The position numbers and the translations under genes are program-made. From the IMG/VR virus record IMGVR_UViG_2660238642_000001: a stretch of DNA of 33,492 bases; one strand, 5' to 3'. Source of the DNA: a virus. Taxonomy: Duplodnaviria; Heunggongvirae; Uroviricota; Caudoviricetes. Of this stretch, positions 7,960-28,081 are shown one piece after another. The stretch's first letter is position 1; each line of letters starts with the position of its first letter. The notes under the pieces are model-generated. The model did not search any database and was not told where the DNA came from. It was given only the letters and a program-made list of their open reading frames with translations.

Positions 7960-7991
7960 CGAACGGCATTTAATGCTGTTTTAATGATCTT

Positions 7992-8030
7992 AAGGGGTGT
8001 TTTTAATGCACCCCTTTCATGATTTTTTTT
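7992..8030 (+). terminator. Rho-independent terminator closing the island-1 two-gene operon
   Basis: Perfect 8-bp stem AAGGGGTG / CACCCCTT with a 9-nt loop, followed within 6 nt by a T8 run. Confidence 0.55.
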
Positions 8031-8076
8031 AGTGTTTGTTGTTTTTAATAAGAATTGTGAATTAACAGGAGAGGAT

Positions 8077-8808
8077 GTGATACACATAACAAAGCCAGGA
8101 ATTTTATTTAAGTATCGTAAGTTTGATAAAAACAATCTGAAGCTGTTATTGAATCGTGAGTTATGGTTTGCAAAACCAGATACTCTTAATGATCCTTTTG
8201 AAGCAAATTCTTCATTTTCAAATGTGCTTGATGCTGTTTGGAAACATTATCCACTGCCTCTTGATATGAGAATTAAATATGAGAGATATCTTAAACAGTC
8301 ATTGCAGCAAGTCGGAATTTGTTCCTTTAGTAAAGCGAGGAAAAATCAATTGATGTGGTCACATTATGCCGATGAACATAAAGGTATTTGCATTGGCTTT
8401 AAAGAGGAGTATTTGAAGAAAGCTGGGGTTTCTTTTTTGGAAGCAGATGTGGAATATCAGGATAATTATCCCTTTGATGATATTGTTAAACGTATTCATT
8501 ATTTTGAGGATAATGAATGCCTTAACGGGTTTGATAATATTTGCGGGGATATTTTACTTTCTATTTTAACGACAAAGTACACAAGTTGGAAATATGAAAG
8601 GGAGCGCCGATTGATTGTGGAGAATTTTGGAGCAAGGAAATTTGAACCTTTAGCGGTCAATTCTATAGCTTTTGGGTTAAGAATGAAGGAAAGAGATAAA
8701 AAAACGCTACTGACTCTATTGTCAGGCCCAGAGTGGTCGCATTTGAAATGGTTTCAATCAACGAAATCATCAATTAAATACTCTTTAGATTTCATACGTA
8801 TTAAATAG
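8077..8808 (+). CDS. DUF2971-like protein (unknown function)
   Basis: LWFAKPDTLNDPFE and MWSHYADEHKGICIGF match my recollection of the DUF2971 signature. The track ORF starts at GTG 8032, but a GTG at 8077 preceded by AGGAGAGG and lying downstream of the terminator is the more likely start. Confidence 0.55.
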   Translation: MIHITKPGILFKYRKFDKNNLKLLLNRELWFAKPDTLNDPFEANSSFSNVLDAVWKHYPLPLDMRIKYERYLKQSLQQVGICSFSKARKNQLMWSHYADEHKGICIGFKEEYLKKAGVSFLEADVEYQDNYPFDDIVKRIHYFEDNECLNGFDNICGDILLSILTTKYTSWKYERERRLIVENFGARKFEPLAVNSIAFGLRMKERDKKTLLTLLSGPEWSHLKWFQSTKSSIKYSLDFIRIK

Positions 8809-9211
8809 CTTTCAAATAGTTACGGTGGTTGTCATGTTATCGTCCCTCTTAACTGTCAGATCTGATTGAATACTGGATATGTAACCTATCAGTTGGTGTC
8901 TGAGTTAATACAACTGAAAGTATCAAACTGATGGCTTTTGTTCACAGTCGGCAGCAGATAATGAAGCACGAAAATCTGATGCTTGATGCGTTGGTTGGAG
9001 GGCAATTAGTCCGGGAGAATTACGGGTTGCTTAACGATATCAGTCCATCCAGAATGGCTCCGTCATCACACAGATGATAGAGAACGCCGCTAGCCGTGAA
9101 ACTTGTTTCTAGTGTTAGCGGGGGGGAACAATGAGTGCAGCGATGCGTTAGACTTATTTGTGTATTATGGCTTAATCTCGGATAGAGTTTGTTATCTGGA
9201 GAATAGGTTAT

Positions 9212-9631
9212 ATGGTGACGCTTGATACTGTGTATTGGAAGTTTGGTTATGCATCGGAAGCTGCCCAATTATTGGAGACTGAATTAATAAATGCCCTCAC
9301 TGAGTATGATATGAAGCAAGGGGGGGATATAGCGTCGTTGAAAAAACAGTTTCTAGAAATGGATAAGTACACGCTGGGTAAACTGAATTACGCACTGAAG
9401 TCAAGGATGGTGGGGGATGCTGATACACTGGAGCATGTGTCAGATGCTCTTAAAGCCAGAAACTACTTGGCACATGAGTTTTATCGCAAACATGCTGATG
9501 GTAAATTCACTCCAGAAGGAAGGCAGAGAATGCTTGCTGACTTAAAAAATATACATCAAATAATTTTTGAGGCTTACCGCAAGGTTCTGCAACTAAGTGA
9601 CATTGATATTCCTCCTTTAGAGCATGATTAA
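9212..9631 (+). CDS. Small alpha-helical HEPN-like protein (putative RNase or toxin)
   Basis: 139 aa, charged and helix-prone, with ARNYLAHEFY (R83-x4-H88-x2-Y91) resembling the HEPN Rx4-6H motif. Stand-alone gene at the distal end of the island. Confidence 0.45.
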   Translation: MVTLDTVYWKFGYASEAAQLLETELINALTEYDMKQGGDIASLKKQFLEMDKYTLGKLNYALKSRMVGDADTLEHVSDALKARNYLAHEFYRKHADGKFTPEGRQRMLADLKNIHQIIFEAYRKVLQLSDIDIPPLEHD

Positions 9632-9633
9632 AT

Positions 9634-9673
9634 CTTGCATGCATTAGATGCATTAGATGCATTAGTTTGCATG
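9634..9673. repeat. Tandem 9-bp repeat GCATTAGAT (about 2.8 copies) bracketed by TTGCATGC direct repeats
   Basis: Directly visible: ttGCATGCATTAGATGCATTAGATGCATTAGtttGCATGC immediately after the stop of the HEPN-like gene. Confidence 0.6.
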
Positions 9674-9768
9674 CCTCATTCGTTATTTTCATATTCGAGT
9701 GCCGTCAGTGTCGGCATGGTTTTGACGGATTCATACATCTGCATTAAAACCGCCCCATGAAGCGGGCG

Positions 9769-9787
9769 GGCGAGGCGGGGAAAGCAC
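9769..9787. other. cos site (19-nt cohesive-end sequence of P2)
   Basis: GGCGAGGCGGGGAAAGCAC matches the P2 cohesive end as I recall it. It lies between the accessory island and the portal gene Q, the position expected for a linearly integrated P2-type genome. Confidence 0.65.
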
Positions 9788-9956
9788 TGCGCGCTGGCGG
9801 TGGTGCTGATTTTATTTTTTCAGCGTCTGAGCGCGTCGTGATGGCGTTTAGATTGTGCGCCGGGGCGTTGGTGTGTCTGCGGGGTGTTTTGTGCGGTGGT
9901 GAGCGTGTGAGGGCGTGATGACGGGATGTAAAAAAGCCGCCCGCAGGCGGCGATGT

Positions 9957-10991
9957 TCAGCCGTTGTCAGTGTCCAGTGAGTAGTTTTTAAAGCGGATGA
10001 CCTCCTGACCGAGCCAGCCGTTTATCTCGCGGATCCTGTCCTGTAGCGGGATAAGCTCATTGCGGACAAAGACCTTAGCCACTTTCTCAATATCACCCAG
10101 CGACCCGACGTTCTCCGGCTTGCCGCCCATCAACTGAAAGGGGATGCGGTGCGCGTCCAGCAGGTCAGCGGCGCTGGCTTTTTTGATATTAAAAAAATCG
10201 TCCTTCGTCGCCACTTCACTGAGCGGGATAATTTTAATGCCGTCGGCTTTTCCCTGTGGGGCATAGAGAAACAGGTTTTTAAAGTTGTTGCGGCCTTTCG
10301 ACTTCACCATGTTTTCGCGAAGCATTTCGATATCGTTGCGATCCTGCACGGCATCGGTGACGTACATGATGTATCCGGCATGTGCGCCGTTTTCGTAATA
10401 CTTGCGGCGGAACAGCGTGGCCGACTCATTCAGCCAGGCAGAGTTAAGGCCGCTGAGATATTCCGGCAGGCCGTACAGCTCCTGATTAATATCCGGCTCC
10501 AGCAGATGAAACACGGAGCCGGGCGCGAAAGGTGCCGGCTCGTTGAAGGACGGCACCCACCAGTAAACATCCTCCTCCACGCCACGGCGGGTATATTTTG
10601 CCGGTGAGGTTTCCAGTCTGATGACCTTACCGGTAGTGCTGTAACGCTTTTCCAGAAACGCATTACCGAACACCAGAAAATCCAGCACAAAGCGGCTGAA
10701 ATCCTGCTGGGAAAGCCACGGGTGCGGGATAAACGTTGAAGCCAGAATATTACGTTTGACGTAAATCGGTGAGCTGTGATGCACGGCAGCACGCAGGCTT
10801 TTTGCCAGACCGGTAAAGCTGACCGGGGGTTCATACCATCTGCCGTTACTGATACATTCGACATAATCCAGAATGTCACGGCGGTCGAGTACCGGCACCG
10901 GATCACCAAAGGTGAATGCCTCCATTTTCGGGGCGCTGGCGGTCATTTTTTTTGCCGCAGGTTGCGGTGTTTTCCCTTTTTTCTTGCTCAT
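9957..10991 (-). CDS. Q: Portal (capsid vertex) protein
   Basis: 344 aa, the P2 gpQ length. First gene leftward of cos and followed by the large terminase gene, as in P2. Confidence 0.9.
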   Translation of the reverse strand: MSKKKGKTPQPAAKKMTASAPKMEAFTFGDPVPVLDRRDILDYVECISNGRWYEPPVSFTGLAKSLRAAVHHSSPIYVKRNILASTFIPHPWLSQQDFSRFVLDFLVFGNAFLEKRYSTTGKVIRLETSPAKYTRRGVEEDVYWWVPSFNEPAPFAPGSVFHLLEPDINQELYGLPEYLSGLNSAWLNESATLFRRKYYENGAHAGYIMYVTDAVQDRNDIEMLRENMVKSKGRNNFKNLFLYAPQGKADGIKIIPLSEVATKDDFFNIKKASAADLLDAHRIPFQLMGGKPENVGSLGDIEKVAKVFVRNELIPLQDRIREINGWLGQEVIRFKNYSLDTDNG

Positions 10992-12763
10992 CAGTAAAAC
11001 TCCAGAATGGTGGATGTCAGCGGAGTGCTGATACCGGCGGTGAGTGGCTCATTTAACAGAGCGTGCATGGTCGCCCAGGCGAGGTCGGCGTGGCTGGCTT
11101 CCTCGCTGCGGCTGGCCTCATAGGTGGCGCTGCGTCCGCTGCTGGTCATGGTCTTGCGGATAGCCATAAACGAGCTGGTGATGTCGGTGGCGCTGACGTC
11201 ATATTCCAGACAGCCACGGCGGATGACGTCTTTTGCCTTGAGCACCATTGCGGTTTTCATTTCCGGCGTGTAGCGGATGTCGCGCGCGGCGGGATAGAAC
11301 GAGCGCACGAGCTGGAACACGCCGACACCAAGGCCGGTGGCATCAATACCGATGTATTCGACGTTGTATTTTTCGGTGAGTTTGCGGATGGATTCAGCCT
11401 GGGTGGCAAAGTCCATGCCTTTCCACTGGTGACGCTCAAGTATCCTGAATTTGCCACCGGCCACCACCGGCGGTGCCAGCACCACGCATCCGGCGCTGTC
11501 GCCACGGTGTGACGGGTCGTAACCAATCCATACCGGGCGGGAGCCGAACGGATTTGCGGCAAACGGCGCGTAGTCTTCCCATTCTTCCAGAGTGTCGACC
11601 ATGCAGCGTTGCAGCTCCTCGAACGGGAACACCGACGCCTTGTCGTCAACAAATTCACACATGAACAGGTTTTTAAAATCGTCGGCGCTGTTTTCGCGTT
11701 TGAGCTGCTCAATGTCGAACAGCGTGCAGCCGCCTTTCAGCGCGTCCTCAATGGTGACAATCTGCCGCCACTGGCCGTCCGCACAGAGAAGACCTCCGGC
11801 AAGGGCGTTATGACTGACGTCGATTTCCACGCGTTCGGCGGCGCTGGCGCGTCCCCGGTTGAACAGTTCACCCGACCAGAACGGGTAGGCGTCGTGCGCC
11901 AGCGTGGACGGGGTGGAGAAATAGGTCGAGCGCAGGTGGCTCTGTGAGGCCATACCTGATGCCACCTTACGCAGTACCTGAAAATTCGGGATCCAGAAAA
12001 TCTCGTCGACGTACAGGTCGCCGTTATGGCTCTGCGCGGTGTTGGAGTTGGTGCCGAGAAAAATCAGTTTTGCGCCGTTATTGCCCAGGACAATCGGGTC
12101 ACCGGTCAGGTCAACGTCAACCAGACGGGCAAAGGCGATGATGTATTCGCGGAACACATACGCCTGCGTTTTACTGGCCGACAGAAAAATCTGGTTATGA
12201 CCGGTTTTCAGGGCGCGCAGCAGCGCCTCGCGGGAAAAATAAAACGTTGCGCCAATCTGGCGGGATTTCAGGATATCGCGGATGCGGTGCTCAAGCCCGG
12301 CGCGATACCAGTGCAACTGATAGTCGAAAGACTGCTCAAAGAAAATCTGCTCCAGCTTTTCGATGGCCTCGTCACTGAAAAAATTCTTTTTCGGTTTGCG
12401 CCGCCCGCCTTTGTTGCGGTTAGCGACGTTCGGATTAAGGTCTGCCTCGTTGCCGGTCTGACTGTAACGGTTGACCCGTGCCAGTCGTTCAATCTGACGT
12501 CCCAGCAGGTCAATTTCCTTGAAGTCACCGCCGGTTTTCTGCGGTTTGATGATGAGCTGGGTCAGCCGCGCTTCCAGACTCATTTCGACACGGCTGATGG
12601 GGGCAACGCTGTCCCAGCCGTCGCGCTGTTTCCAGCTCTGCACCGTCGGGCGTTTCATCTGCAACATGGCGGCAATCTGCGGCACGGAAAACCCCTGCCA
12701 GTACAGCAGCGCCGCCTGACGACGCGGGTCGTGTAAAAGAGTGGTGTCTGTGGTGATGGTCAT
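10991..12763 (-). CDS. P: Terminase large subunit (ATPase)
   Basis: 590 aa from the ATG at 12763, which is preceded by GAGGT; the track extends to a TTG at 12793. Same length as P2 gpP and coupled to Q. Confidence 0.9.
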   Translation of the reverse strand: MTITTDTTLLHDPRRQAALLYWQGFSVPQIAAMLQMKRPTVQSWKQRDGWDSVAPISRVEMSLEARLTQLIIKPQKTGGDFKEIDLLGRQIERLARVNRYSQTGNEADLNPNVANRNKGGRRKPKKNFFSDEAIEKLEQIFFEQSFDYQLHWYRAGLEHRIRDILKSRQIGATFYFSREALLRALKTGHNQIFLSASKTQAYVFREYIIAFARLVDVDLTGDPIVLGNNGAKLIFLGTNSNTAQSHNGDLYVDEIFWIPNFQVLRKVASGMASQSHLRSTYFSTPSTLAHDAYPFWSGELFNRGRASAAERVEIDVSHNALAGGLLCADGQWRQIVTIEDALKGGCTLFDIEQLKRENSADDFKNLFMCEFVDDKASVFPFEELQRCMVDTLEEWEDYAPFAANPFGSRPVWIGYDPSHRGDSAGCVVLAPPVVAGGKFRILERHQWKGMDFATQAESIRKLTEKYNVEYIGIDATGLGVGVFQLVRSFYPAARDIRYTPEMKTAMVLKAKDVIRRGCLEYDVSATDITSSFMAIRKTMTSSGRSATYEASRSEEASHADLAWATMHALLNEPLTAGISTPLTSTILEFY

Positions 12764-12793
12764 GAATACCTCGCCGTGATGAATACACGGCAA

Positions 12794-12936
12794 GGCTACT
12801 GAGTCGCGCCCCGCGATTCGCTAAGGTGCTGTTGTGTCAGTGATAAGCCATCCGGGACTGATGGCGGAGGATGCGTATCGTCGGGAAACTGATGCCGACA
12901 TGTGACTCCTCTAATCACTATTCAGGACTCCTGACA
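12794..12936. promoter_or_regulatory. Divergent late promoter region (P-Q leftward, O-N-M-L rightward), presumed Ogr-dependent
   Basis: Intergenic spacer between divergent late operons. P2 late promoters are Ogr-activated (established knowledge). I could not identify a TGT-N12-ACA element unambiguously. Confidence 0.35.
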
Positions 12937-13791
12937 ATGGCAAAAAAAGTCTCAAAATTCTTTCGTATCGGCGTTGAGGGTGACACCTGTGACGGGCGTG
13001 TCATCAGTGCGCAGGATATTCAGGAAATGGCCGAAACCTTTGACCCGCGAGTCTATGGTTGCCGCATTAACCTGGAACATCTGCGCGGCATCCTGCCTGA
13101 CGGTATTTTTAAGCGTTATGGCGATGTGGCCGAACTGAAGGCCGAAAAGATTGACGATGATTCGGCGCTGAAAGGCAAATGGGCGCTGTTTGCGAAAATC
13201 ACCCCGACCGATGACCTTATCGCGATGAACAAGGCCGCGCAGAAGGTCTACACCTCAATGGAAATTCAGCCGAACTTTGCCAACACCGGCAAATGTTATC
13301 TGGTGGGGCTGGCCGTCACCGATGACCCGGCAAGCCTCGGCACGGAATACCTGGAATTCTGCCGCACGGCAAAACACAACCCCCTGAACCGCTTCAAATT
13401 AAGCCCTGAAAATCTGATTTCAGTGGCAACGCCTGTTGAGCTGGAATTTGAAGACCTGCCTGAAACCGTGTTCACCGCCCTGACCGAAAAGGTGAAATCC
13501 ATTTTTGGCCGCAAACAGGCCAGCGATGACGCCCGTCTGAATGACGTGCATGAAGCGGTGACCGCTGTCGCTGAACATGTGCAGGAAAAACTGAGCGCCA
13601 CTGAGCAGCGCCTCGCAGAGATGGAAACCGCCTTTTCTGCACTTAAGCAGGAAGTGACTGACAGGGCGGATGAAACCAGCCAGGCATTCACCCGCCTGAA
13701 AAACAGTCTCGACAGCACCGAAAGTCTGACCCAGCAGCGCCGCAGCAAAGCCACCGGCGGTGGCGGTGACGCCCTGATGACGAACTGCTGA
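12937..13791 (+). CDS. O: Capsid scaffolding protein
   Basis: 284 aa from the internal ATG (MAKKVSKFFRIGVEGDTCDGR...), matching the P2 gpO length and N-terminus as recalled. Confidence 0.85.
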   Translation: MAKKVSKFFRIGVEGDTCDGRVISAQDIQEMAETFDPRVYGCRINLEHLRGILPDGIFKRYGDVAELKAEKIDDDSALKGKWALFAKITPTDDLIAMNKAAQKVYTSMEIQPNFANTGKCYLVGLAVTDDPASLGTEYLEFCRTAKHNPLNRFKLSPENLISVATPVELEFEDLPETVFTALTEKVKSIFGRKQASDDARLNDVHEAVTAVAEHVQEKLSATEQRLAEMETAFSALKQEVTDRADETSQAFTRLKNSLDSTESLTQQRRSKATGGGGDALMTNC

Positions 13792-13849
13792 CCGGCGTCA
13801 GTCAGTCCGGGAAAACCTTCACGATTAACCCTTAATTTCAGGAAAAAAT

Positions 13850-14923
13850 ATGCGCCAGGAAACCCGCTTTAAATTTAATGCCTACCTGTCCCGTGTTGCC
13901 GAACTGAACGGCATCGACGCCGGTGATGTGTCGAAAAAGTTCACCGTTGAACCGTCGGTCACCCAGACCCTGATGAACACCATGCAGGAGTCCTCTGATT
14001 TTCTGACCCGCATCAATATTGTGCCGGTCAGCGAAATGAAAGGGGAAAAAATTGGTATCGGTGTCACCGGCTCCATCGCCAGCACCACCGACACCGCCGG
14101 TGGCACCGAGCGTCAGCCAAAGGACTTCTCGAAGCTGGTGTCAAACAAGTACGAATGCGACCAGATTAACTTCGATTTTTATATCCGCTACAAAACGCTT
14201 GACCTGTGGGCGCGTTATCAGGATTTCCAGCTCCGTGTCCGTAACGCCATTATCAAACGCCAGTCCCTTGATTTAATCATGGCCGGTTTTAACGGCGTGA
14301 AGCGTGCCGAAACTTCTGACCGCAGCAGCAATCCGATGTTGCAGGATGTGGCGGTCGGCTGGTTGCAGAAATACCGCAATGAAGCCCCGGCGCGCGTGAT
14401 GAGCAAGGTCACTGACGAGGAAGGGCGCACCACCTCTGAGGTTATCCGCGTGGGTAAGGGCGGCGATTATGCCAGCCTTGATGCACTGGTGATGGATGCG
14501 ACCAACAACCTGATTGAACCGTGGTATCAGGAAGACCCTGACCTTGTGGTGATTGTGGGACGTCAGCTACTGGCGGACAAGTATTTCCCCATCGTTAACA
14601 AGGAGCAGGACAACAGCGAAATGCTGGCCGCTGACGTCATCATCAGCCAGAAACGCATCGGTAACCTGCCGGCGGTACGCGTCCCGTATTTCCCGGCGGA
14701 TGCGATGCTCATCACGAAGCTGGAAAACCTGTCCATCTACTACATGGATGACAGCCATCGCCGCGTGATTGTGGAAAACCCGAAACTCGACCGCGTGGAG
14801 AACTACGAGTCAATGAACATTGATTACGTGGTGGAAGACTACGCCGCCGGTTGTCTGGTGGAAAAAATTAAGGTCGGTGATTTCTCCACACCGGCTAAGG
14901 CGACCGCAGAGCCGGGAGCGTAA
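13850..14923 (+). CDS. N: Major capsid protein
   Basis: 357 aa, the P2 gpN length, in the O-N-M-L order. Confidence 0.9.
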   Translation: MRQETRFKFNAYLSRVAELNGIDAGDVSKKFTVEPSVTQTLMNTMQESSDFLTRINIVPVSEMKGEKIGIGVTGSIASTTDTAGGTERQPKDFSKLVSNKYECDQINFDFYIRYKTLDLWARYQDFQLRVRNAIIKRQSLDLIMAGFNGVKRAETSDRSSNPMLQDVAVGWLQKYRNEAPARVMSKVTDEEGRTTSEVIRVGKGGDYASLDALVMDATNNLIEPWYQEDPDLVVIVGRQLLADKYFPIVNKEQDNSEMLAADVIISQKRIGNLPAVRVPYFPADAMLITKLENLSIYYMDDSHRRVIVENPKLDRVENYESMNIDYVVEDYAAGCLVEKIKVGDFSTPAKATAEPGA

Positions 14924-14926
14924 CCG

Positions 14927-15670
14927 ATGACGAGTCCCGCACAGCGCCACATGATGCGGGTCTCGGCAGCGATGACCGCGCAGCGGGAAGCCGCCCCGCT
15001 GCGACATGCAACTGTCTATGAGCAGATGCTGGTCAAGCTGGCCGCAGACCAGCGCACACTGAAAGCGATTTATTCAAAAGAGCTGAAGGCCGCGAAAAAG
15101 CGCGAACTGCTGCCGTTCTGGTTGCCGTGGGTGAACGGCGTGCTGGAGCAGGGCAAAGGTGCACAGGATGACATTCTGATGACGGTCATGCTGTGGCGTC
15201 TGGATACCGGCGATATTGCCGGTGCGCTGGAGATTGCCCGTTATGCCCTGAAGTACGGTCTGACCATGCCGGGTAAACACCGCCGCACCCCGCCGTACAT
15301 GTTCACCGAGGAGGTGGCACTTGCGGCCATGCGCGCTCACGCTGCCGGTGAGTCTGTGGACACCCGCCTGCTGACGGACACCCTCGAACTGACCGCCACG
15401 GCTGACATGCCTGATGAAGTGCGCGCAAAGCTGCACAAAATCACCGGTCTGTTTCTGCGTGACGCTGGTGATGCCGGAGGTGCGCTGGCGCACCTGCAAC
15501 GTGCGACACAGCTCGACTGTCAGGCAGGCGTCAAAAAAGAGATTGAACGACTGGAGCGGGAGCTGAAACCGAAGCCGGAGCCGCAGCCAAAAGCGGTCAC
15601 CCGCGCCCCGCGTAAGACCCGGAGCGTGACCCCGGCAAAACGTGGACGCCCGAAAAAGAAAGCCAGTTAA
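14927..15670 (+). CDS. M: Terminase small subunit / endonuclease
   Basis: 247 aa, the P2 gpM length, with a basic Lys/Arg/Pro-rich C-terminus. Confidence 0.85.
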   Translation: MTSPAQRHMMRVSAAMTAQREAAPLRHATVYEQMLVKLAADQRTLKAIYSKELKAAKKRELLPFWLPWVNGVLEQGKGAQDDILMTVMLWRLDTGDIAGALEIARYALKYGLTMPGKHRRTPPYMFTEEVALAAMRAHAAGESVDTRLLTDTLELTATADMPDEVRAKLHKITGLFLRDAGDAGGALAHLQRATQLDCQAGVKKEIERLERELKPKPEPQPKAVTRAPRKTRSVTPAKRGRPKKKAS

Positions 15671-15769
15671 CAACCGAATGCGCCCCGCGCCAGGGCGGCA
15701 CGCCGGTCAGTGACGGTGAATCACCTGACACTGCACCGGCGTCCACCGCCCGACTTTTCAGAGGTAGTC

Positions 15770-16279
15770 ATGATGACGCTGATTATTCCGCGAAAGGAGG
15801 CTCCTGTATCCGGTGAGGGTACGGTGGTCATCCCGCAACCGGCAGGCGACGAGCCGGTGATTAAAAACACGTTCTTTTTTCCCGATATCGACCCGAAGCG
15901 CGTCCGGGAACGTATGCGCCTTGAGCAGACCGTCGCCCCCGCCCGTCTGCGTGAGGCCATCAAGTCAGGCATGGCTGAAACGAATGCGGAGCTGTACGAG
16001 TACCGCGAACAGAAAATTGCTGCCGGTTTTACGCGTCTGGCGGACGTCCCGGCGGACGACATCGACGGTGAAAGCATCAAAGTTTTTTACTACGAGCGCG
16101 CCGTGTGTGCGATGGCGACCGCGTCGCTTTATGAGCGTTATCGCGGCGTGGATGCCAGTGCGAAAGGCGACAAGAAGGCCGACAGCATTGACAGCACCAT
16201 TGATGAACTGTGGCGGGATATGCGCTGGGCGGTGGCGCGTATCCAGGACAAGCCGCGCTGCATCGTGAGTCAAATCTGA
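15770..16279 (+). CDS. L: Head completion / stabilisation protein
   Basis: 169 aa from the ATG at 15770 (MMTLIIPRKEAPVSGEG...), preceded by GAGGT. The track ORF starts upstream at 15710. Confidence 0.8.
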   Translation: MMTLIIPRKEAPVSGEGTVVIPQPAGDEPVIKNTFFFPDIDPKRVRERMRLEQTVAPARLREAIKSGMAETNAELYEYREQKIAAGFTRLADVPADDIDGESIKVFYYERAVCAMATASLYERYRGVDASAKGDKKADSIDSTIDELWRDMRWAVARIQDKPRCIVSQI

Positions 16280-16482
16280 TGAAGACCTTTGCGCTACAGG
16301 GCGACACGCTCGACGCCATTTGTGTCCGGTATTACGGGCGCACTGAGGGCGTGGTTGAAGCCGTGCTCGCCGCAAATCCGGGACTGGCTGAACTGGGTGC
16401 GGTGCTGCCACACGGCACCGCCGTCGAACTGCCCGACGTTCAGACCGCGCCCGTGGCTGAAACTGTCAATCTGTGGGAGTAA
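16279..16482 (+). CDS. X: Tail protein X (LysM-like)
   Basis: 67 aa starting MKTFALQGDTLDAICVRYYGRTEG. The start overlaps the stop of L (TGATG). Confidence 0.75.
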   Translation: MKTFALQGDTLDAICVRYYGRTEGVVEAVLAANPGLAELGAVLPHGTAVELPDVQTAPVAETVNLWE

Positions 16483-16485
16483 CGC

Positions 16486-16767
16486 ATGACAGCAGAAGAA
16501 AAAAGCGTCCTGTCGCTTTTCATGATTGGGGTGCTGATTGTTGTCGGCAAGGTGCTTGCCGGTGGTGAACCCATCACCCCGCGTCTGTTTATCGGGCGCA
16601 TGTTGCTCGGTGGTTTTGTCTCGATGGTTGCCGGTGTTGTTCTGGTGCAGTTTCCTGACCTGTCACTGCCTGCGGTGTGCGGCATCGGCTCCATGCTGGG
16701 TATCGCCGGTTATCAGGTGATTGAGATTGCCATTCAGCGCCGCTTTAAGGGCAGGGGGAAACAGTAA
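16486..16767 (+). CDS. Y: Holin
   Basis: 93 aa with hydrophobic TM segments, directly upstream of the endolysin gene; same length as P2 gpY. Confidence 0.8.
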   Translation: MTAEEKSVLSLFMIGVLIVVGKVLAGGEPITPRLFIGRMLLGGFVSMVAGVVLVQFPDLSLPAVCGIGSMLGIAGYQVIEIAIQRRFKGRGKQ

Positions 16768-17264
16768 TGCCGGTAATTAACACGCATCAGAATATCGCCG
16801 CCTTTCTCGACATGCTGGCCGTGTCCGAAGGGACGGCGAACCATCCGCTGACGAAAAACCGGGGCTATGACGTGATAGTCACCGGACTGGACGGAAAGCC
16901 GGAAATTTTCACCGACTACAGTGACCACCCGTTCGCACATGGCCGACCGGCGAAGGTGTTTAACCGTCGCGGTGAAAAATCCACGGCCTCCGGTCGCTAT
17001 CAGCAGCTTTATCTGTTCTGGCCGCACTACCGCAAACAGCTTGCCCTGCCGGATTTCAGTTCGTTGTCACAGGACAGACTCGCCATTCAGTTGATCCGCG
17101 AACGCGGTGCACTGGATGACATCCGGGCGGGACGCATTGAGCGCGCCATTTCACGCTGTCGCAATATCTGGGCGTCCCTGCCGGGTGCCGGTTACGGTCA
17201 GCGTGAGCATTCACTGGAAAAACTGGTCACCGTCTGGCGTACCGCTGGCGGCGTACCGGCTTAA
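16767..17264 (+). CDS. K: Endolysin (lysozyme / murein hydrolase)
   Basis: 165 aa, the P2 gpK length, immediately after the holin. Confidence 0.85.
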   Translation: MPVINTHQNIAAFLDMLAVSEGTANHPLTKNRGYDVIVTGLDGKPEIFTDYSDHPFAHGRPAKVFNRRGEKSTASGRYQQLYLFWPHYRKQLALPDFSSLSQDRLAIQLIRERGALDDIRAGRIERAISRCRNIWASLPGAGYGQREHSLEKLVTVWRTAGGVPA

Positions 17265-17278
17265 ACGGAGTAAACACC

Positions 17279-17704
17279 ATGAAGAAATTATCCCTTTCAC
17301 TGATGCTGAACGTGTCGCTGGCGCTGATGCTGGCACTGTCCCTGATTTACCCGCAGAGCGTGGCCGTCAGTTTTGTCGCCACCTGGGCGATTCTGGCGAC
17401 GGTTATCTGTGTGGTTGCCGGTGGTGTCGGCGTGTATGCCACTGAGTATGTGCTGGAACGCTACGGGCGGGAGCTGCCGCCTGAATCGCTGGCCGTGAAG
17501 ATTGTCACGTCGCTGTTTTTGCAGCCGGTGCCGTGGCGCAGACGGGCGGCGGCTCTGGTGGTGATGGTGGCGACGTTTATCTCGCTGGTCGCTGCCGGGT
17601 GGATTTTTACTGCGCTGATTTACCTTGTGGCGTCGGTGTTTTTCCGGCTGATACGTAAAGCCTGTCGTCAGCGTCTTGAGGGGCGAGAATTATGTCAAAG
17701 CTGA
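17279..17704 (+). CDS. lysA: Lysis timing membrane protein LysA
   Basis: 141 aa, strongly hydrophobic with multiple TM segments, after the K gene. Confidence 0.7.
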   Translation: MKKLSLSLMLNVSLALMLALSLIYPQSVAVSFVATWAILATVICVVAGGVGVYATEYVLERYGRELPPESLAVKIVTSLFLQPVPWRRRAAALVVMVATFISLVAAGWIFTALIYLVASVFFRLIRKACRQRLEGRELCQS

Positions 17705-21629: not shown

Positions 21630-24254
21630 ATGAGCACGAAATTTAAAACCGTTATCACTACTGCCGGAGCCGCAAAGCTGGCAGCCGCCACTGTCCCCGG
21701 CGGGAAAAAAGTAAACCTGTCTGCAATGGCCGTGGGTGACGGTAATGGCAAATTGCCGGTGCCGGATGCCGGTCAGACGAAACTGGTGCATGAGGTCTGG
21801 CGTCACGCTCTGAATAAAGTCAGCGTGGATAACAAGAATAAAAACTATATCGTGGCTGAACTGGTTGTACCGCCAGAAGTGGGCGGCTTCTGGATGCGTG
21901 AACTTGGTCTGTATGATGATGCCGGAACACTGATTGCGGTCGCTAACATGGCAGAAAGCTATAAGCCTGAACTGGCTGAAGGCTCCGGGCGTGCGCAGAC
22001 CTGCCGCATGGTCATTATTGTCAGTAACGTGGCGTCTGTTGAGCTGAGTATTGATGCCAGCACAGTGATGGCGACGCAGGATTACGTCGATGACAAAATC
22101 GCAGAGCATGAGCAGTCCCGCCGCCATCCTGACGCCACGCTGACAGAAAAAGGTTTTACTCAGTTAAGCAGTGCAACAAACAGCACCAGTGAAAAGCTGG
22201 CAGCAACGCCAAAGGCAGTAAAAGCAGCCTATGACAATGCTGAGAAACGTCTGCAGAAAGACCAGAACGGTGGCGATATTCCAGATAAGGGCGCTTTTCT
22301 GGACAATATTGGCGTTACCAGCCTGACGTTTATGAAACACAATGGAATGATTCCAACCACTGACAATCTTGATTCCTATGGCCCAGAAGAAAAATATCTT
22401 GGAACGTGGTCATGTCCGTCACAATCCACTGCAAAACCAGAGTCTGGTTACCCTGAAGATAAAGGCAATGGGGTTCTGGAAGTATTCAATGCTGGTCGCT
22501 TTCACTGCACACAACGCTACACCACCCGAACCGGTAATATTTACATTCGGATGCTTGATGCAGAATGGAACCCTGTCAGTCCTGTATGGAGTGCATGGAG
22601 AGCTATTACAAGCGGGACTCGCCCATTAAGCACGTCAATTGACCTGAATTCTTTAGGTGGTGCGGAACACCTGGGAATATGGCGCAATAGCAGTACATCA
22701 ATAGCCTCATTTGACCGTCATTTCCCGGAGGAAGGGAGTTTTGGACAGGGTATTCTGGAAGTCTTTGAAGGCGGTCTGTATGGGAGGATGCAACGTTATA
22801 CCACCCGTAGTGGGACTATGTACATTCGCGGACTGACAGCCTCATGGGATGCAGAAAATCCACAATGGGAGGACTGGATTGCTGTTGGGTATCAGTCCAC
22901 GGGATGGACTTATTCAGGGGATCTTGATGACCTTTTAAAGCCTGGTATTTATAGCGTCACGAAACAGGCCACAAATGCACCTGTCACCGACTCTAAAGAT
23001 CTTGCTGTTGGCTCAATAGTTGAGGTGAAAAAACGTTGTGATATTGAATCGTATATCCAGACATATACGACTGTTTCAGCAACGGATGCCTATAAAAACC
23101 GGACATTTCAGCGAACCCGCGCCAGCGGTGAAACTGACTGGGGGGAATGGGCGGAAGTATACAACTCAAAATCATTACTCACTAAATTAGGTGTCGGCGG
23201 TGTTACCGACAGGTTATCCAGTCTGGACTGGCAGACCTACGACTTTATACCGGGCAGCATGATAACTGTCAGGCTTTCAGATATGACCAATATTCCCGAT
23301 GGGATGGAATGGGGCGTCATTGATACTAACCTGATAAATATCACTGTTGGCCCCAGTGAAGGCGGAGGTGTCGCCCGTTCAATGCAGGTATGGCGCAGCA
23401 CTTCAAACAAAACCAACTATCGTTTTTTTACAGTCCGCTTATATGGCAATCCTGGGGAGCGTAGCTTCAATATTCGTCGGCTACCAATTATCGACGAAGC
23501 CCAGACATGGGAGGCAAAACAGACATTCAGTGCAGGCCTTTCTGGTGAACTGTCCGGCAATGCGGCTACAGCAACAAAGCTGAAAACGGCAAGGACAATT
23601 AACGGCGTAAAATTTGACGGCTCGGCAAATATTGAAGCGTTTCCGCCTGGTGTTCCGCTGCCGTGGCCATCAGATACACCACCTGCAGGCTATGCAATCA
23701 TGCAGGGGCAGACGTTTGATAAGGCAGCATATCCGAAACTGGCTATAGCCTATCCTTCTGGTGTTATTCCTGATATGCGCGGCTGGACAATCAAGGGCAA
23801 ACCCGCCAGTGGGCGTGCCGTATTGTCACAGGAACAGGACGGGATTAAATCGCATACTCACAGTGCCAGTGCGTCAAATACGGATTTGGGAACGAAAACA
23901 ACCAGTTCGTTTGATTACGGGACGAAGACAGTCAGTACGTTTAACTACGGAACAAAAACCACTAATACCACTGGTAACCATACACATACCATTTACAGAG
24001 GGAATGCCAATACTAATGGTGAAACCGGTAAAACAGGCTTTGACAACCCATCGTTTAATGGCACATCAGGAGCTGCCGGGAATCATGCCCACACGGTAGA
24101 TATTGGTGCACATAATCATACGGTTGGTATTGGTGCACATTCACACACGGTTGCTATTGGCTCACACGGGCACTCTATTACCGTTAATGCTACAGGTAAT
24201 ACAGAAAACACCGTCAAAAACATCGCATTTAACTATATTGTGAGGCTTGCATAA
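21630..24254 (+). CDS. H: Tail fibre protein (P2 H-like N-terminus, divergent repeat-containing distal part)
   Basis: 874 aa. The N-terminal ~190 aa resemble P2 gpH as recalled. The middle carries three ~45-aa internal repeats (QRYTTR[TS]G..YIR...W..W). The C-terminus is Gly/Thr/His-rich with HxH repeats ([32 protein letters not shown]). Confidence 0.85.
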
Positions 24255-24832
24255 TGGCTTTCAGAATGAGTGCAGAAGCACAAACTATCCGCGTTTTCAA
24301 TTTACTTGATGGAACCAATGAGTTTATTGGCGAAAGTGATGCATATATTCCGCCGCATACAGGTCTGCCTGCAAACAGTACAGATATTGCACCACCTGAT
24401 ATTCCTGCTGGTTATGCAGCCGTTTTCAATGCAGATGAAATGAAATGGGAGTTGATGGAAGATCATCGCGGAAAGACTGTCTACGAAACGAAAACGGGAG
24501 CAGCCATTTATATTTCTGAACTTGGTGCATTACCTCCAGACGTGACAGCCATTTCCCCGGATGGGGATTATCAGAAATGGAACGGAAATGCGTGGGTGAA
24601 TGATGAGAATGCAGAGCATGATGCACTTGTCAGAGCGGCGGAGTCTCAGAAGAAAGAGCAGATTGCATATGCCGGTGAAATTATTGGCACTCTGCAGGAT
24701 GCTGTCGATTTAGATATGGCTACCGAGGAAGAAAAGTTAAGCCTGACACACTGGAAAAAATACCGTGTGCTACTGAATCGCGTTCAGCCGGAAAATGCTC
24801 CGGATATAGAATGGCCAGAAATGCCGCAATAA
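24254..24832 (+). CDS. G: Tail fibre assembly chaperone
   Basis: 192 aa immediately after H with a coupled start. Confidence 0.75.
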
Positions 24833-24902
24833 ATCGTATTAGCTCTGGTATGAGATTACTCATCTATGGCACAGAGTAAAACCTAATCAGGCTGTCCGTT
24901 CC

Positions 24903-24918
24903 GTGCCAGGAGCGGACG
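24903..24918. repeat. Copy 1 of a direct repeat GTGCCAGGAGCGGACG (within a ~27-bp imperfect repeat that forms a hairpin)
   Basis: Exact 16-mer seen again at 25827-25842. The surrounding sequence GTCCGTTccgtgccagGAGCGGAC can fold as a stem-loop. Lies just downstream of G. Confidence 0.6.
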
Positions 24919-25229
24919 TTGTAAAGTTTATTTGGAGAATAATGGTTAGAAGAACTATGTAGATCATAGCCCTCTAAAGTCAGTAGTCTTACACCATATA
25001 AATGGTCATTTAGAGATAGTACACCACCTACAAAAAACGAGATAAAGCGTGCAAGCGGCATGAAGATACATAAAATACTCCATTCTGCACTTGATGTTAG
25101 GATGAATACTGACACTCGCTTTGTAAAGATAAAGATGATCTTGAGGATGATTAGTTTATTAATTATCTCCAATGTTTGTTATTTTGTGATGATAAAGATT
25201 CTCTGGATTAATAGGATGGTAATTCAATT

Positions 25230-25257
25230 AAAAGAGACCTTATAGAAGGCCTCTTTT
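25230..25257. terminator. Hairpin with A-run and T-run flanks (candidate bidirectional terminator for the reverse-strand 3-TM gene)
   Basis: AAAAGAGACC ttatagaa GGCCTCTTTT: 9 of 10 complementary positions, about 55 bp beyond the 3' end of the minus-strand ORF. Confidence 0.45.
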
Positions 25258-25312
25258 AAGTTATGAGAGCTGATTTTATATTCAATAGAGTATTCTCATC
25301 GAAGAAATAACC

Positions 25313-25660
25313 TCATAAAATGTAAAGACAGCCAGCAAAAAAAATACAGATAAAGATAAGGGAAATAGCACACTTAACTAAGGACTGAATCCCCCGAGGT
25401 GTTCCCCATGGTTTAGACATTTGGGTTATAACCCAAATAAATAGGGCCATAAAACAGCAAACACCAGCCAATCCGAGCAGAGATATTATGACAACTCCAA
25501 ACAGATTTCCAACATCTAGTTTATCTGTTTTTGCAACTAGGGTTAACAAACCAGCAATAATAGTTGCTATCGATATTCCCGCAATGGTTGTGAGATCAGC
25601 GATAACAGCCAGTTTTTCTTTAGTATTTCCTTGAGTAAAAACCTCTAAAATTGATTTCAT
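25313..25660 (-). CDS. Small 3-TM membrane protein (island-2 cargo, unknown function)
   Basis: 115 aa. ATG preceded on the minus strand by AGGTGG. Three hydrophobic segments of ~22-26 residues. AT-rich, reverse orientation relative to the late operons. Confidence 0.55.
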   Translation of the reverse strand: MKSILEVFTQGNTKEKLAVIADLTTIAGISIATIIAGLLTLVAKTDKLDVGNLFGVVIISLLGLAGVCCFMALFIWVITQMSKPWGTPRGIQSLVKCAISLIFICIFFAGCLYIL

Positions 25661-25826
25661 GGAAAATAACCACCTACTATCGATTATATTCAGGAACTTT
25701 TTATCATAACAATATCAGATAGATAAGGATATTGTAATATTTTGGATGATTTAAACTTACTTTTGTAACTCTAATGTCCACTTTTCGCTCACAGCGGACC
25801 TTTAGCTCAGTTACCTCGTCCGCTTT

Positions 25827-25842
25827 GTGCCAGGAGCGGACG
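25827..25842. repeat. Copy 2 of the direct repeat GTGCCAGGAGCGGACG with overlapping alternative hairpins
   Basis: GCGGAC..GTCCGC and CGTCCGCT..AGCGGACG are mutually exclusive stems in gcggacctttagctcagttacctcgtccgctttgtgccaggagcggacg. Lies between the divergent island-2 genes. Confidence 0.6.
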
Positions 25843-26102
25843 CTAACCTGATTGACGGGAAATCATATTAAGTCGGCATAAAAAATTAGAATATCTTTAG
25901 TGATTATTACTAATGTGTGTGTATAACTTATGCCTAATTTATCGCTCCGGCTGAGGGAATCTTGCCTCCGCTGTCACTTTTAGGTATGTTAACAACTATT
26001 TTTACAGTGGTTCCGAGTTATGCTATCTAACAGATTACTTGAACCGAGTCCGTTTATCAGTATGGCGTTTTATATGCTCAGAGTCCATCCAAGGAGTGAC
26101 TT

Positions 26103-26579
26103 TTGAAATTTGAACAAATCTATAAAAATATTACTGGCCTTAGCTGTCCCATATTCGGGATTCAGTGGAATGCTCCAATAATAGAAACTGACGAAGCGAA
26201 GAAGATCGTCATTTTTCTTGAGGACAAGCGCGTTCTTTTCAATCCTGTCGACATGGAGGGTGCTAGTCATTGCACTTCGAGTGTTATCAACATTAGATCT
26301 GAATTGACTAAAGTCCTACAAGGTTTGCCGAGCGATTCACATTTAGCAAAACAATTAAGGAAAATGAGAAAAGCATGCCAAGAATTCTGTGACAGCGTTG
26401 GCTCCCCTCACTTTATCCAACTTGATCATCCTGTTCAAATATCCATACTTGAGCGAGCCCTTTTTAAACTGCGACAAAAGTGTGGTAACTCTCTGGCAGA
26501 AATAGCGGTTACCTATGGTCTTGATGTTGATGACGGATTGGCCAGTATTATCCCTTTTAATAATCCCAGTAACATATAG
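26103..26579 (+). CDS. Hypothetical protein (island-2 cargo, unknown function)
   Basis: 158-aa ORF (track coordinates), AT-rich, non-canonical start, divergent from the 3-TM gene and followed by a strong terminator. No recognisable motifs. Confidence 0.5.
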   Translation: MKFEQIYKNITGLSCPIFGIQWNAPIIETDEAKKIVIFLEDKRVLFNPVDMEGASHCTSSVINIRSELTKVLQGLPSDSHLAKQLRKMRKACQEFCDSVGSPHFIQLDHPVQISILERALFKLRQKCGNSLAEIAVTYGLDVDDGLASIIPFNNPSNI

Positions 26580-26766
26580 CAATGACTATGAATTTGCTTG
26601 CTGGATTAATTATCATGCAACCGACAGTTTTGGGTCGGAAGCGGTTAGCAAATTAGTCATTAGTGAGTCGTTATGTCCGTTCATCGCTCAAAGCAGACTG
26701 TCAGATTTAATAGCGTTTTGATTATGTAACTTGTCAGTTGGAAGCTGAGTGAGAACAAATCAAGGC

Positions 26767-26795
26767 AGGCGGGCTGATTGCCCGCCTTTTCTTTA
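26767..26795 (+). terminator. Rho-independent terminator separating island 2 from the FI late operon
   Basis: Perfect 8-bp stem AGGCGGGC / GCCCGCCT with loop TGATT, followed by TTTCTTTATTT. Confidence 0.65.
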
Positions 26796-26890
26796 TTTGT
26801 TGTTTCATCCACTGGCCAGCCAGGTCAAATAGCGTCTCATGCTCTGCACAACAGAAAATAGTTGCACCCATTAACCACGGAGTTAAACGG

Positions 26891-28081
26891 ATGAGTGACT
26901 ATCATCACGGCGTGCAGGTGCTGGAGATTAACGACGGCACCCGCGTCATTTCCACCGTATCCACGGCCATTGTCGGCATGGTCTGCACGGCCAGCGATGC
27001 GGATGCGGAAACCTTCCCCCTCAATAAACCGGTGCTGATAACCAATGTGCAGAGCGCAATTGCAAAGGCCGGTAAAAAAGGCACGCTGGCGGCATCGTTG
27101 CAGGCCATCGCCGACCAGTCAAAACCGGTCACCGTTGTCGTGCGTGTGGAAGACGGCACCGGCGACGACGAAGAAACGAAACTTGCGCAGACCATTTCCA
27201 ATATCATCGGCACCACCGACGAAAACGGTCAGTACACCGGACTGAAAGCCCTGCTGGCGGCGGAGTCGGTAACCGGTGTTAAACCGCGTATTCTTGGTGT
27301 GCCGGGACTGGACACCAAAGAGGTTGCCGTCGCACTGGCATCAGTCTGTCAGAAGCTGCGCGCTTTCGGGTATATCAGCGCATGGGGCTGTAAGACCATT
27401 TCCGAGGTGAAAGCCTACCGCCAGAATTTCAGCCAGCGTGAGCTGATGGTCATCTGGCCGGATTTCCTCGCATGGGATACGGTCGCCAGTACCACCGCCA
27501 CCGCGTATGCCACCGCTCGTGCACTGGGCCTGCGTGCTAAAATCGACCAGGAGCAGGGCTGGCATAAAACGCTGTCCAACGTCGGGGTAAGCGGTGTTAC
27601 CGGCATCAGCGCCTCTGTATTCTGGGATTTGCAGGAGTCCGGTACCGATGCTGACCTGCTTAACGAGTCAGGCGTCACAACGCTGATTCGCCGTGACGGT
27701 TTCCGCTTCTGGGGTAACCGTACCTGCTCTGATGACCCGCTGTTCCTCTTTGAAAACTACACCCGCACCGCGCAGGTGCTTGCCGACACGATGGCTGAGG
27801 CGCACATGTGGGCGGTGGACAAGCCCATCACCGCAACGCTGATTCGCGACATCGTTGACGGCATCAATGCCAAATTCCGTGAGCTGAAAACAAACGGCTA
27901 TATCGTGGATGCGACCTGCTGGTTCAGCGAAGAATCCAACGATGCGGAAACCCTCAAGGCCGGAAAACTGTATATCGACTACGACTATACACCGGTGCCT
28001 CCTCTTGAAAACCTGACCCTGCGCCAGCGTATTACCGATAAATACCTGGCAAATCTGGTCACCTCGGTTAACAGCAATTAA
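26891..28081 (+). CDS. FI: Contractile tail sheath protein
   Basis: 396 aa, the P2 gpFI length, followed by the tube gene. Confidence 0.9.
   Translation: MSDYHHGVQVLEINDGTRVISTVSTAIVGMVCTASDADAETFPLNKPVLITNVQSAIAKAGKKGTLAASLQAIADQSKPVTVVVRVEDGTGDDEETKLAQTISNIIGTTDENGQYTGLKALLAAESVTGVKPRILGVPGLDTKEVAVALASVCQKLRAFGYISAWGCKTISEVKAYRQNFSQRELMVIWPDFLAWDTVASTTATAYATARALGLRAKIDQEQGWHKTLSNVGVSGVTGISASVFWDLQESGTDADLLNESGVTTLIRRDGFRFWGNRTCSDDPLFLFENYTRTAQVLADTMAEAHMWAVDKPITATLIRDIVDGINAKFRELKTNGYIVDATCWFSEESNDAETLKAGKLYIDYDYTPVPPLENLTLRQRITDKYLANLVTSVNSN

Follow-up and report, generated by a model that had tools for sequence, protein, structure and literature searches.

Paired short inverted sites as predicted edges of two exchangeable gene cassettes in the G–FI hotspot of a P2-like prophage

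A 33,492-nt stretch of DNA from a tailed phage (Caudoviricetes; IMG/VR record IMGVR_UViG_2660238642_000001), hereafter the window, contains a P2-like late region in which AT-rich cargo lies between the late genes G and FI (Table 1). The GC content of this cargo was 30–40%, compared with 45–60% in the flanks. An earlier reading of the same DNA, made without database searches (the sequence-only reading), had pointed to a 16-mer, GTGCCAGGAGCGGACG, in two direct copies enclosing a reverse-strand membrane gene. Both observations stood. The 16-mer occurred exactly twice on the plus strand (24903–24918 and 25827–25842), with a mean of 0.01 matches expected by chance and two matches in 0 of 100 shuffles, and the minus-strand gene between the copies encoded three hydrophobic segments (3-TM gene). 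The longer repeat around the 16-mer spanned 25 nt at 88% identity (24894–24918 and 25818–25842).

The two copies were found to belong to a set of four related 24-bp sites (A–D, starting at 24894, 25776, 25818 and 26675), two of which the sequence-only reading had missed. The degenerate pattern GTCYRYT-N10-AGCRGAC matched only these four places in 33.5 kb (8 strand-hits vs 0.09 expected), which, together with the shuffle mean of 0.01, ruled out a chance repeat. Common to the four sites were the arms GTCCGCT…AGCGGAC. Sites A and C, which contain the first and the second copy of the 16-mer, respectively, were of one type (T1), and sites B and D of another (T2). A and B form the left and right edges of one cassette, C and D those of a second, and D is also the right edge of the hotspot. 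Since there are four sites and not two, the direct repeat consists of the left-end (T1) sites of two cassettes in tandem. The geometry of a direct repeat flanking the membrane gene was therefore not retained: an imperfect inverted pair, T1 on the left and T2 on the right, encloses each cassette, and the direct copies belong to adjacent cassettes. A local duplication was rejected, given the hundreds of different flanks in which the sites recur.

Table 1. Features of the G–FI region of the window, in order of position.
Feature	Site type	Position	Strand	Sequence or description	Basis
P2 gene G	 	24254–24832	+	Tail fibre assembly; left backbone gene	ORF; annotation in the identical E. coli SaT040 locus
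Left adaptor	 	24833–24893	+	~61 nt, G stop to site A	Alignment
Site A	T1	24894–24917	+	GTCCGTT-CC-GTGCCAGG-AGCGGAC	 
Cassette 1	 	24918–25775	 	~860 bp, 30–39% GC	Composition, repeat analysis
Cargo gene 1	 	25313–25690	-	125 aa, three hydrophobic segments (3-TM); phrog_4155, function unknown	 
Site B	T2	25776–25799	+	GTCCACT-TT-TCGCTCA-C-AGCGGAC	 
18-nt spacer	 	25800–25817	+	CTTTAGCTCAGTTACCTC; with the outer arms of B and C forms the junction core	 
Site C	T1	25818–25841	+	GTCCGCT-TT-GTGCCAGG-AGCGGAC	 
Cassette 2	 	25842–26674	 	~830 bp, roughly 40% GC	Composition
Cargo gene 2	 	26103–26579	+	158-aa DUF6650 protein (PF20355, E 2e-16; phrog_29952), function unknown	 
Site D	T2	26675–26698	+	GTCCGTT-CA-TCGCTCA-A-AGCAGAC	 
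Right adaptor	 	26699–26766	+	68 nt, TGTCAGATTTAATAGC…; conserved in cargo-bearing P2-like phages	 
Intrinsic terminator	 	26767–26787	+	AGGCGGGCTGATTGCCCGCCT then TTTTCTTTATT	Terminator scan
P2 gene FI	 	26891–28081	+	Tail sheath; right backbone gene; FI promoter region between terminator and FI	ORF, homology

Beyond the window, the consensus of 263 unique T1 sites was GTCCGCT-N-TGTGCCA-GG-AGCGGAC and that of 174 unique T2 sites GTCCGCT-YN-TCGCTCA-N-AGCRGAC. Both types consist of two inverted arms of about 8 bp (GTCCGCTN and NAGCGGAC) around an asymmetric 7-bp centre, and arms and centres were near-invariant across these unique contexts. T2 is approximately the reverse complement of T1; the inverted T1 centre (TGGCACA) and the T2 centre (TCGCTCA) differ by two changed bases. 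The order T1(+)…T2(+) was observed in ~90 viral loci and ~100 bacterial ones. Tandem cassettes were joined by T2–18 nt–T1; in 50 of ~60 junctions the starts of the two sites were 42 nt apart. Arrays reached four or more cassettes. The unique cassettes (109–125) were 0.34–6.9 kb long, with a median of 1.5 kb and 40% GC.

An exact 15-mer scan of IMG/VR yielded at least 120 loci, most with a full T1 site and many different flanks; among the matches listed, only about one quarter adjoined a P2-type G or FI. At least 120 loci were likewise obtained when one genome per species was scanned with the T1 pattern. The matches listed were mostly from Enterobacterales (Enterobacter, Klebsiella, Pantoea, Erwinia, Citrobacter, Rahnella, Serratia, Pectobacterium), with further ones from Idiomarina, Halioglobus, many metagenome-assembled genomes (MAGs) of Alphaproteobacteria and a few contigs labelled as other phyla. 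The sites also occurred in Enterobacterales chromosomes, islands and other prophages. Of 5426 complete E. coli genomes, 993 matched at least 80% of a 71-nt junction query (window 25774–25844); none of the matches listed was annotated. In Alphaproteobacteria, the partner site had the same arms and other centres, e.g. CTGGGTCAGA or TTACCCCCGA. Four of the alphaproteobacterial MAG loci (L182, L139, L156, L242) had several T1-type sites per 8 kb, and in L182 three of them followed each other at 46-nt spacing (6845–6960). The cargo was very diverse and included LysR, MFS, SDR, AraC and GNAT proteins as well as defence-type genes (Old, PD-T4-3, AriA/PtuA/GajA-like ATPases, SIR2); UmuDC genes were recurrent neighbours of the sites.

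Among 79 P2-like loci sampled by their FI gene, the T1/T2 flanks were present in 44, around 31 distinct types of cargo. About eight of the 79 were empty, with 129–165 nt between G and FI and no sites. In alignments of nine P2-like loci, backbone homology continued through T1, was lost directly after it and was regained inside T2. Likewise, megablast homology of the window to other P2-like phages began at 26673–26684, i.e. at site D. When two loci shared only their cargo or only their flanks, the divergence set in inside the 24-bp site or at its edge. The copy of the 3-TM cassette in E. coli SF-468 had the same left, inner part of T2 and a different outer (right) arm. The DUF6650 cassette (97% amino acid identity) was found in an unrelated e14-like prophage remnant beside paoD; in L022/L395, the left arm of T1 at this cassette differed from that of the window. 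Two E. coli loci, from strains EC01307 and ZYS9073, shared 99.9% identity as far as T1 position ~15 and 99.2% identity again from T2 position ~10 onwards, and differed only in the interval, where EC01307 encoded the DUF6650 protein and ZYS9073 a 'lysogenic conversion protein'. From this clean swap, the exchange was localized to the 7-bp centres, TGTGCCA in T1 and TCGCTCA in T2. Across the loci, the crossovers mapped to positions ~9–15 of T1 and ~10–16 of T2, as a comparative rather than biochemical localization. The junction core was identical in 10 pairs of loci in which both neighbouring cargos differed. Cargo shared between loci was never inverted relative to the sites among 29 shared pairs (29:0), and inversion by T1 × T2 recombination was rejected on this count.

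These comparisons indicate that the sites are the edges of two exchangeable accessory-gene cassettes in a P2 tail-gene hotspot. The suggestion of the sequence-only reading that the repeats are footprints of cassette exchange or recombination was thereby supported: variable cargo is bounded by the sites in the 44 P2-like loci and in unrelated backbones too, and the breakpoints fall in the sites. That reading had named absence of the repeat from related prophages with other cargo as the observation that would speak against it; the repeat was present there, around the 31 cargo types. The sites also showed what is expected of tyrosine-recombinase core sites, that is, inverted arms around a 6–8 bp asymmetric centre with the apparent exchange points inside that centre.

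A candidate enzyme was encoded in the same P2 hotspot of E. coli SF-468, namely a 194-aa PF00589 protein. Its full-length relatives have 200 aa and were numerous (at least 7985 matches at E ≤ 1e-10), with 72–92% identity across Enterobacterales, Proteus/Providencia, Idiomarina, Cycloclasticus and others. The catalytic residues R, K, H-x-x-R, H and Y were invariant in an alignment spanning 59–100% identity. No sequence relative was present in the PDB at E ≤ 0.001, and a 'tyrosine-type DNA invertase' model gave a weak hit (E 5e-5). The gene occupied the junction position, in the place taken by the 18-nt spacer in ordinary junctions: a T2-type site lay 63 nt upstream and a T1 half-site (GTGCCAGGAGCGGAC) 30 nt downstream, with a short terminator hairpin between the gene and the half-site and ordinary T1 and T2 sites further out. 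This arrangement was observed in six of the seven site-sampled loci with the gene, the seventh (SF-468) having lost the downstream half-site, and in most loci of at least 85% identity sampled by the recombinase gene itself. The position and orientation of the gene relative to the sites were fixed over 57–100% identity, and clades at about 62% identity had sites with the same arm and another centre (CGGCCAAA). The gene unit was present in 872 of 5426 E. coli genomes (about 16%). From this adjacency and the clade-specific co-variation of the centre, the ~200-aa tyrosine recombinase is the probable enzyme for the sites.

Individual loci showed further arrangements. In Idiomarina sp. X4 (L244 10001–17534), the recombinase gene directly followed the core gcvTHP operon and was itself followed by the T1 half-site, a 7-kb cassette (PhoQ-like kinase, regulator, EptA, PAP2, DAGK, sulfatase) and T2; no T2-type site was present upstream of the gene, and the whole is reminiscent of an integron platform. 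A genomic island of the Nissle-derived E. coli SYNB1934 (L312, ~7489–17500) contained an array of about four cassettes around the gene, with T1 and T2 on both sides and the T1 half-site after the gene. One 5.7-kb cassette of this island comprised a TonB-dependent receptor and an ABC transporter operon, and another (10739–11548) lay between two T2 sites with no recognisable T1. In a Qin-like prophage, a T2-type site preceded the gene and T1/T2 sites lay on both sides. The SF-468 protein (L002 1935–2519; also L258, L259, L270) is 194 aa long: a fusion to the inside of the 3-TM cassette has taken the place of its last 12 residues and of the downstream T1 half-site, so that it ends in …YLGIEVDIEGLF*; it retains the catalytic Tyr and may or may not be active. 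In E. coli K-12 MG1655, flxA of the Qin prophage lies in a T1…T2 cassette (1645981–1646995; L392) with T1 inside the annotated ydfV ORF and a T2-like site 990 nt downstream. The 18 kb examined for this cassette contained no recombinase homologue, and none was seen in the 8-kb stretches of the four alphaproteobacterial loci named above.

We propose, with a probability of roughly 0.6, that a site-specific tyrosine recombinase swaps the cassettes between molecules by T1 × T1 and T2 × T2 exchange in the 7-bp centres. The small recombinase would bind the arms and exchange strands across the centre. T1 would pair with T1 and T2 with T2 on two DNA molecules, and the intervening segment would be replaced. 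The centres of T1 and T2 differ at two or three positions, a heterospecificity read from sequence that would block T1 × T2 reactions, so that cassettes would be neither inverted nor deleted. The alternating inverted sites would divide the DNA into inside segments, which are the cassettes, and outside segments, which may be the 18-nt spacer, the recombinase gene or the whole phage backbone. Since the window lacks a recombinase gene, exchange in this prophage would need the enzyme in trans. That the recombinase binds and cuts T1 and T2, and that exchange is site-specific rather than homology-driven, we infer from the comparisons above.

Several observations weigh against this proposal. The lack of a recombinase gene in the window is one of them. 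Within the DNA stretches examined, the gene was present in only about 3% of the site-sampled loci, and therefore most arrays would depend on an enzyme supplied in trans. The sites adjoining the gene are themselves partly degenerate, with the outer arm AAGGGAC on one side and the terminator hairpin on the other. The first tandem junction (T2–18 nt–T1) is not explained by simple T1 × T1 and T2 × T2 exchange. Moreover, the backbone flanks share about 90–99% identity among P2-like phages, which would also allow cargo to be swapped by ordinary homologous recombination in G and FI, and an identical 24-bp patch could itself support rare homology-dependent exchange.

The last two points lead to the view that the patches are conserved for another reason, such as insulating the cargo from late transcription, that the swaps are made by RecA, Red or RecET and that the recombinase is a passenger. 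Besides the identity of the P2-like backbones around the hotspot (86–100%), this is favoured by the conservation of the adaptors adjoining the sites, by the many arrays with no recombinase gene nearby and by a 2026 survey of P2/P4 hotspots, which named homologous and illegitimate recombination as candidate mechanisms (PMC13586616). We nevertheless consider it unlikely, since the same cassette was found in backbones that have only the 24-bp sites in common (the window compared with L022 and L395) and the breakpoints cluster in the 7-bp centre instead of spreading across the longer conserved adaptors. For RecA-dependent exchange, moreover, 24 bp lies at the lower limit of length. Nor would an arbitrary patch need two distinct centres conserved from Enterobacterales to Alphaproteobacteria, or a passenger gene a fixed position and orientation relative to the sites. 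Quite improbable, in our view, is a further explanation in which T2–18 nt–T1 is a miniature transposable element of 66 bp, with the ~750-bp T2–recombinase–T1 unit as its autonomous form, the cassettes being the DNA between insertions, later shuffled by recombination between copies. The geometry of the composite is indeed constant, its matches are frequent in E. coli and unannotated among those listed, the recombinase gene sits exactly at the position of the 18-nt spacer, and junction cores are identical between unrelated cargos. The ends of the arrays, however, hold only half of the composite (T1 alone after G, T2 alone before FI), no target-site duplication and no empty-versus-filled pair was seen for the 66-bp unit, and the clean swap replaced the DNA between sites and not the junction.

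The remaining alternative is that the sites act in RNA, as terminators, attenuators or processing or stability elements for the H–G late transcript and the cargo genes, for which we see very little chance. The stem potential reported for both copies by the sequence-only reading was reproduced by RNA and DNA folding: the copies folded as RNA with −19.2 and −28.9 kcal/mol (z −3.0 and −2.7 vs shuffles), and the T1 sites A and C as DNA with −7.5 and −9.3 kcal/mol (z −3.1 and −3.5). The competing stem upstream of the second copy (GCGGAC…GTCCGC) was also present and is the right arm of site B facing the left arm of site C. The first T1 copy, moreover, lies 62 nt past the G stop. Against this, the T2 sites B and D did not fold as single-stranded DNA (z −1.5 and −0.2). 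None of the four sites was followed by a T-run (the following sequences are GTTGTAAAG, CTTTAGC, GCTAACC and TGTCAGA), none was called by the terminator scan, which placed its call at 26767–26787 instead, and an Rfam search gave no match at the sites; an intrinsic terminator was rejected on the missing T-run and scan call. Arm positions 4 and 21 were paired as CG in 177, TG in 41, CA in 24 and TA in 3 of the 263 unique T1 sites, and as CG in 89, CA in 54, TG in 8 and TA in 3 of the 174 T2 sites. Compensatory arm changes were thus absent from this pair: T-A was not above independence, and 25–36% of the sites had C-A or T-G. A REP-like or attenuator hairpin maintained by compensation was rejected on the uncompensated arms, the unfolded sites B and D and the lack of an Rfam match. 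The orientation of the sites was fixed per cassette and independent of the direction of the cargo (longest ORF on the plus strand in 67 and on the minus strand in 41), and homology breakpoints at the sites are not something an RNA element needs. The paired terminators or attenuators that had been offered as the other explanation of the repeat were accordingly given up. Because the T-run is missing, T2 does not fold, the arms are not compensated and the orientation is independent of cargo, the sites were probably not selected as hairpins, and their two-fold symmetry looks like that of a protein-binding inverted repeat on duplex DNA.

On a wider and more tentative reading, the T1/T2 sites and the ~200-aa recombinase may constitute a widespread, unnamed gene-cassette exchange system, with the recombinase acting in trans and cassettes carrying their own promoters. 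Its working would be that of dif modules or of a natural recombinase-mediated cassette exchange, on heterospecific 24-bp sites. If so, it would move defence and accessory genes between phage hotspots (P2 Z/fun, lambdoid, e14/Qin-like), islands and chromosomes of Enterobacterales, other Gammaproteobacteria and, with variant centres, Alphaproteobacteria, and would supply the missing mechanism for rapid cargo swapping between unrelated mobile elements. P2-like hotspots are among the main places where anti-phage systems are looked for. Should the sites be recombinase substrates, cassette edges would be predictable to the base, hotspots could be found by a DNA motif instead of their flanking genes, and one 200-aa protein with two short sites would be enough for testing, and perhaps exploiting, the exchange. 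As for the window, its 3-TM and DUF6650 genes form two independent mobile cassettes and not one operon, and annotation of the hairpins as terminators should be avoided.

The adaptors on the two sides of the cargo mirror each other (left …AATCTGACA-GTCCGCT, right AGCAGAC-TGTCAGATT…). The left adaptor was kept in cargo-bearing P2-like phages and was absent from the empty ones. The terminator at 26767–26787 is a candidate for the real end of the H–G (V) operon; an element equal to it directly follows G in empty hotspots. Within cassette 1, the 3-TM gene has its own promoter-like site (25712–25683, minus strand). A 14-nt inverted repeat with 93% complementarity and a 4-nt loop (TTAAAAGAGACCTT / AAGGCCTCTTTTAA) was located just downstream of this gene at 25228–25259; it resembles a bidirectional terminator inside the cassette and was not called by a simple terminator scan. 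The left 320 nt of the cassette (24918–25240) contained no convincing gene. A 102-aa ORF on the minus strand (24864–25172) crosses site A, had no family hit and carries no annotation in SaT040, whose locus is identical. The part of cassette 1 between 25241 and site B recurs adjoining FI in E. coli SF-468, and because homology to the SF-468 3-TM cassette begins only at 25241, cassette 1 may be composite or carry a remnant. Searches on the function of the cargo genes returned only DUF6650 from Pfam, nothing from PADLOC and only families of unknown function from PHROGs.

A different kind of insert was present in 15 of the 79 P2-like loci (L318–L322, L344, L353, L358, L361, L363, L365 and others, from IMG/VR). 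In place of T1/T2 cassettes, these loci contained an invertase gene of the Hin/Gin type together with a tail-fibre-assembly segment in the opposite orientation, and the G–FI position therefore has two unrelated kinds of occupant. The 3' end of G (24700–24795, plus strand) partially matched the Rfam family RF02111 ('IS009'), scoring 34.9 bits where the gathering score is 117 (E 7e-6; positions 104–199 of the model, ending at the edge of the searched stretch); the match may only reflect a candidate sRNA family defined on a tail-fibre-assembly gene region. The E. coli SaT040 record is 100% identical to window 24500–27100. Since its gene H is annotated as frameshifted and the window has an intact 874-aa ORF (21630–24254), the window may come from a different, near-identical prophage copy.

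In phage P2 itself (NC_001895), fun(Z) lies between a T1 (15335) and a T2 (17432). The inverted repeats of the Z/fun region of P2-like coliphages were reportedly described by Nilsson, Karlsson & Haggard-Ljungquist (Mol Biol Evol 2004), and the T1 and T2 sites around fun(Z) are probably these repeats. The relevant passage of a review citing Nilsson et al. describes fun as having inverted repeats on both sides that make site-specific recombination possible (PMC8987985). As far as that passage goes, the likeness to the window is close, with foreign AT-rich genes at the same G–FI locus bounded by inverted repeats that permit exchange with bacterial genomes; unlike Z/fun, the window carries a tandem pair of cassettes and different cargo (3-TM, DUF6650). 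Because every testable feature was found (G–FI position, AT-rich insert, inverted flanks, presence around fun(Z) in P2, occurrence outside P2), we assign the sites of the window to the inverted-repeat sites of P2 Z/fun. Inverted repeats of a recombination type have been known from this hotspot since 2004; what the window contributes is an instance with two cassettes and new cargo. The two-site grammar, the 42-nt junction, the localization of crossovers to the centres, the breadth of occurrence and the link to the 200-aa recombinase may go beyond published knowledge. Motif, accession and keyword searches of the accessible literature returned no description of the sites or of the small recombinase, and Rousset 2022, the 2026 P2/P4 paper and the iLund4u preprint made no mention of repeats at the P2 hotspot. 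The 2026 survey treated the mechanism of cargo swapping, especially between unrelated elements, as open (PMC13586616).

The closest working analogue are the dif modules of Acinetobacter, in which short sites with two inverted arms and a short centre likewise alternate in inverted orientation and delimit accessory-gene modules that are shuffled between replicons without a transposase of their own (PMC13141974, PMC6449649). By eye, dif and cer sequences are unrelated to T1 and T2. The pdif sites bounding dif modules are 28 bp long (11-6-11) and similar to dif, and they are served by XerC and XerD of the host. In contrast, the sites described here have 24 bp, two centre types and an associated, apparently dedicated recombinase of ~200 aa, and adjacent modules do not share one site but are separated by T2–18 nt–T1. 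The 28-bp XerC/XerD type was rejected, as the recombinase scored 43 and 26 bits with the XerC and XerD models (cut-offs ~330).

Like integrons, the arrays consist of small, AT-rich, diverse cassettes separated by imperfect palindromic elements of ~60–70 nt, a tyrosine recombinase gene is fixed beside a site, and arrays without a recombinase occur as well (comparable to CALINs). Unlike integron cassettes, which are mostly promoterless and co-oriented with the array, those described here have their own promoters and point in either direction (67:41), and each junction has two crossover points rather than one. Assignment to attC/IntI was rejected: the consensus sequences lack RYYYAAC/GTTRRRY boxes, and the recombinase has 200 aa and scored 18 bits with the integron integrase models (cut-offs 265–435). 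An attC-like long hairpin was not the predicted fold of the 66-nt composite, and since neither the T2 sites nor the composite form a long hairpin, there was no indication of folded single-strand substrates. IS200/IS605 or REP/RAYT elements were rejected as well, as no HUH (Y1) transposase was among the recurrent neighbours and the associated enzyme belongs to PF00589; GTCCGC and GCGGAC were absent from the text of the GTAG/CGTC REP survey.

The shufflon recombinase Rci with its sfx sites and FimB/FimE are similar in that small or arm-less tyrosine recombinases act on short asymmetric sites with a 7-bp crossover centre. FimB and FimE also have ~200 aa, and the centre of the shufflon sfx site is GTGCCAA, compared with GTGCCAG here, which may be a coincidence. 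The shufflon and Fim systems invert DNA at one locus, whereas the cargo described here was never inverted and its sites occur on many replicons. Engineered recombinase-mediated cassette exchange with lox or FRT sites is artificial, and for T1 and T2 heterospecificity is deduced from the letters of their centres; it nevertheless resembles the proposed mechanism in that sites with the same arms and incompatible centres would let a segment be replaced without excision or inversion. Such heterospecific lox/FRT exchange serves as our working analogy, and it fits both the uniform orientation of shared cargo and the clean swap between EC01307 and ZYS9073.

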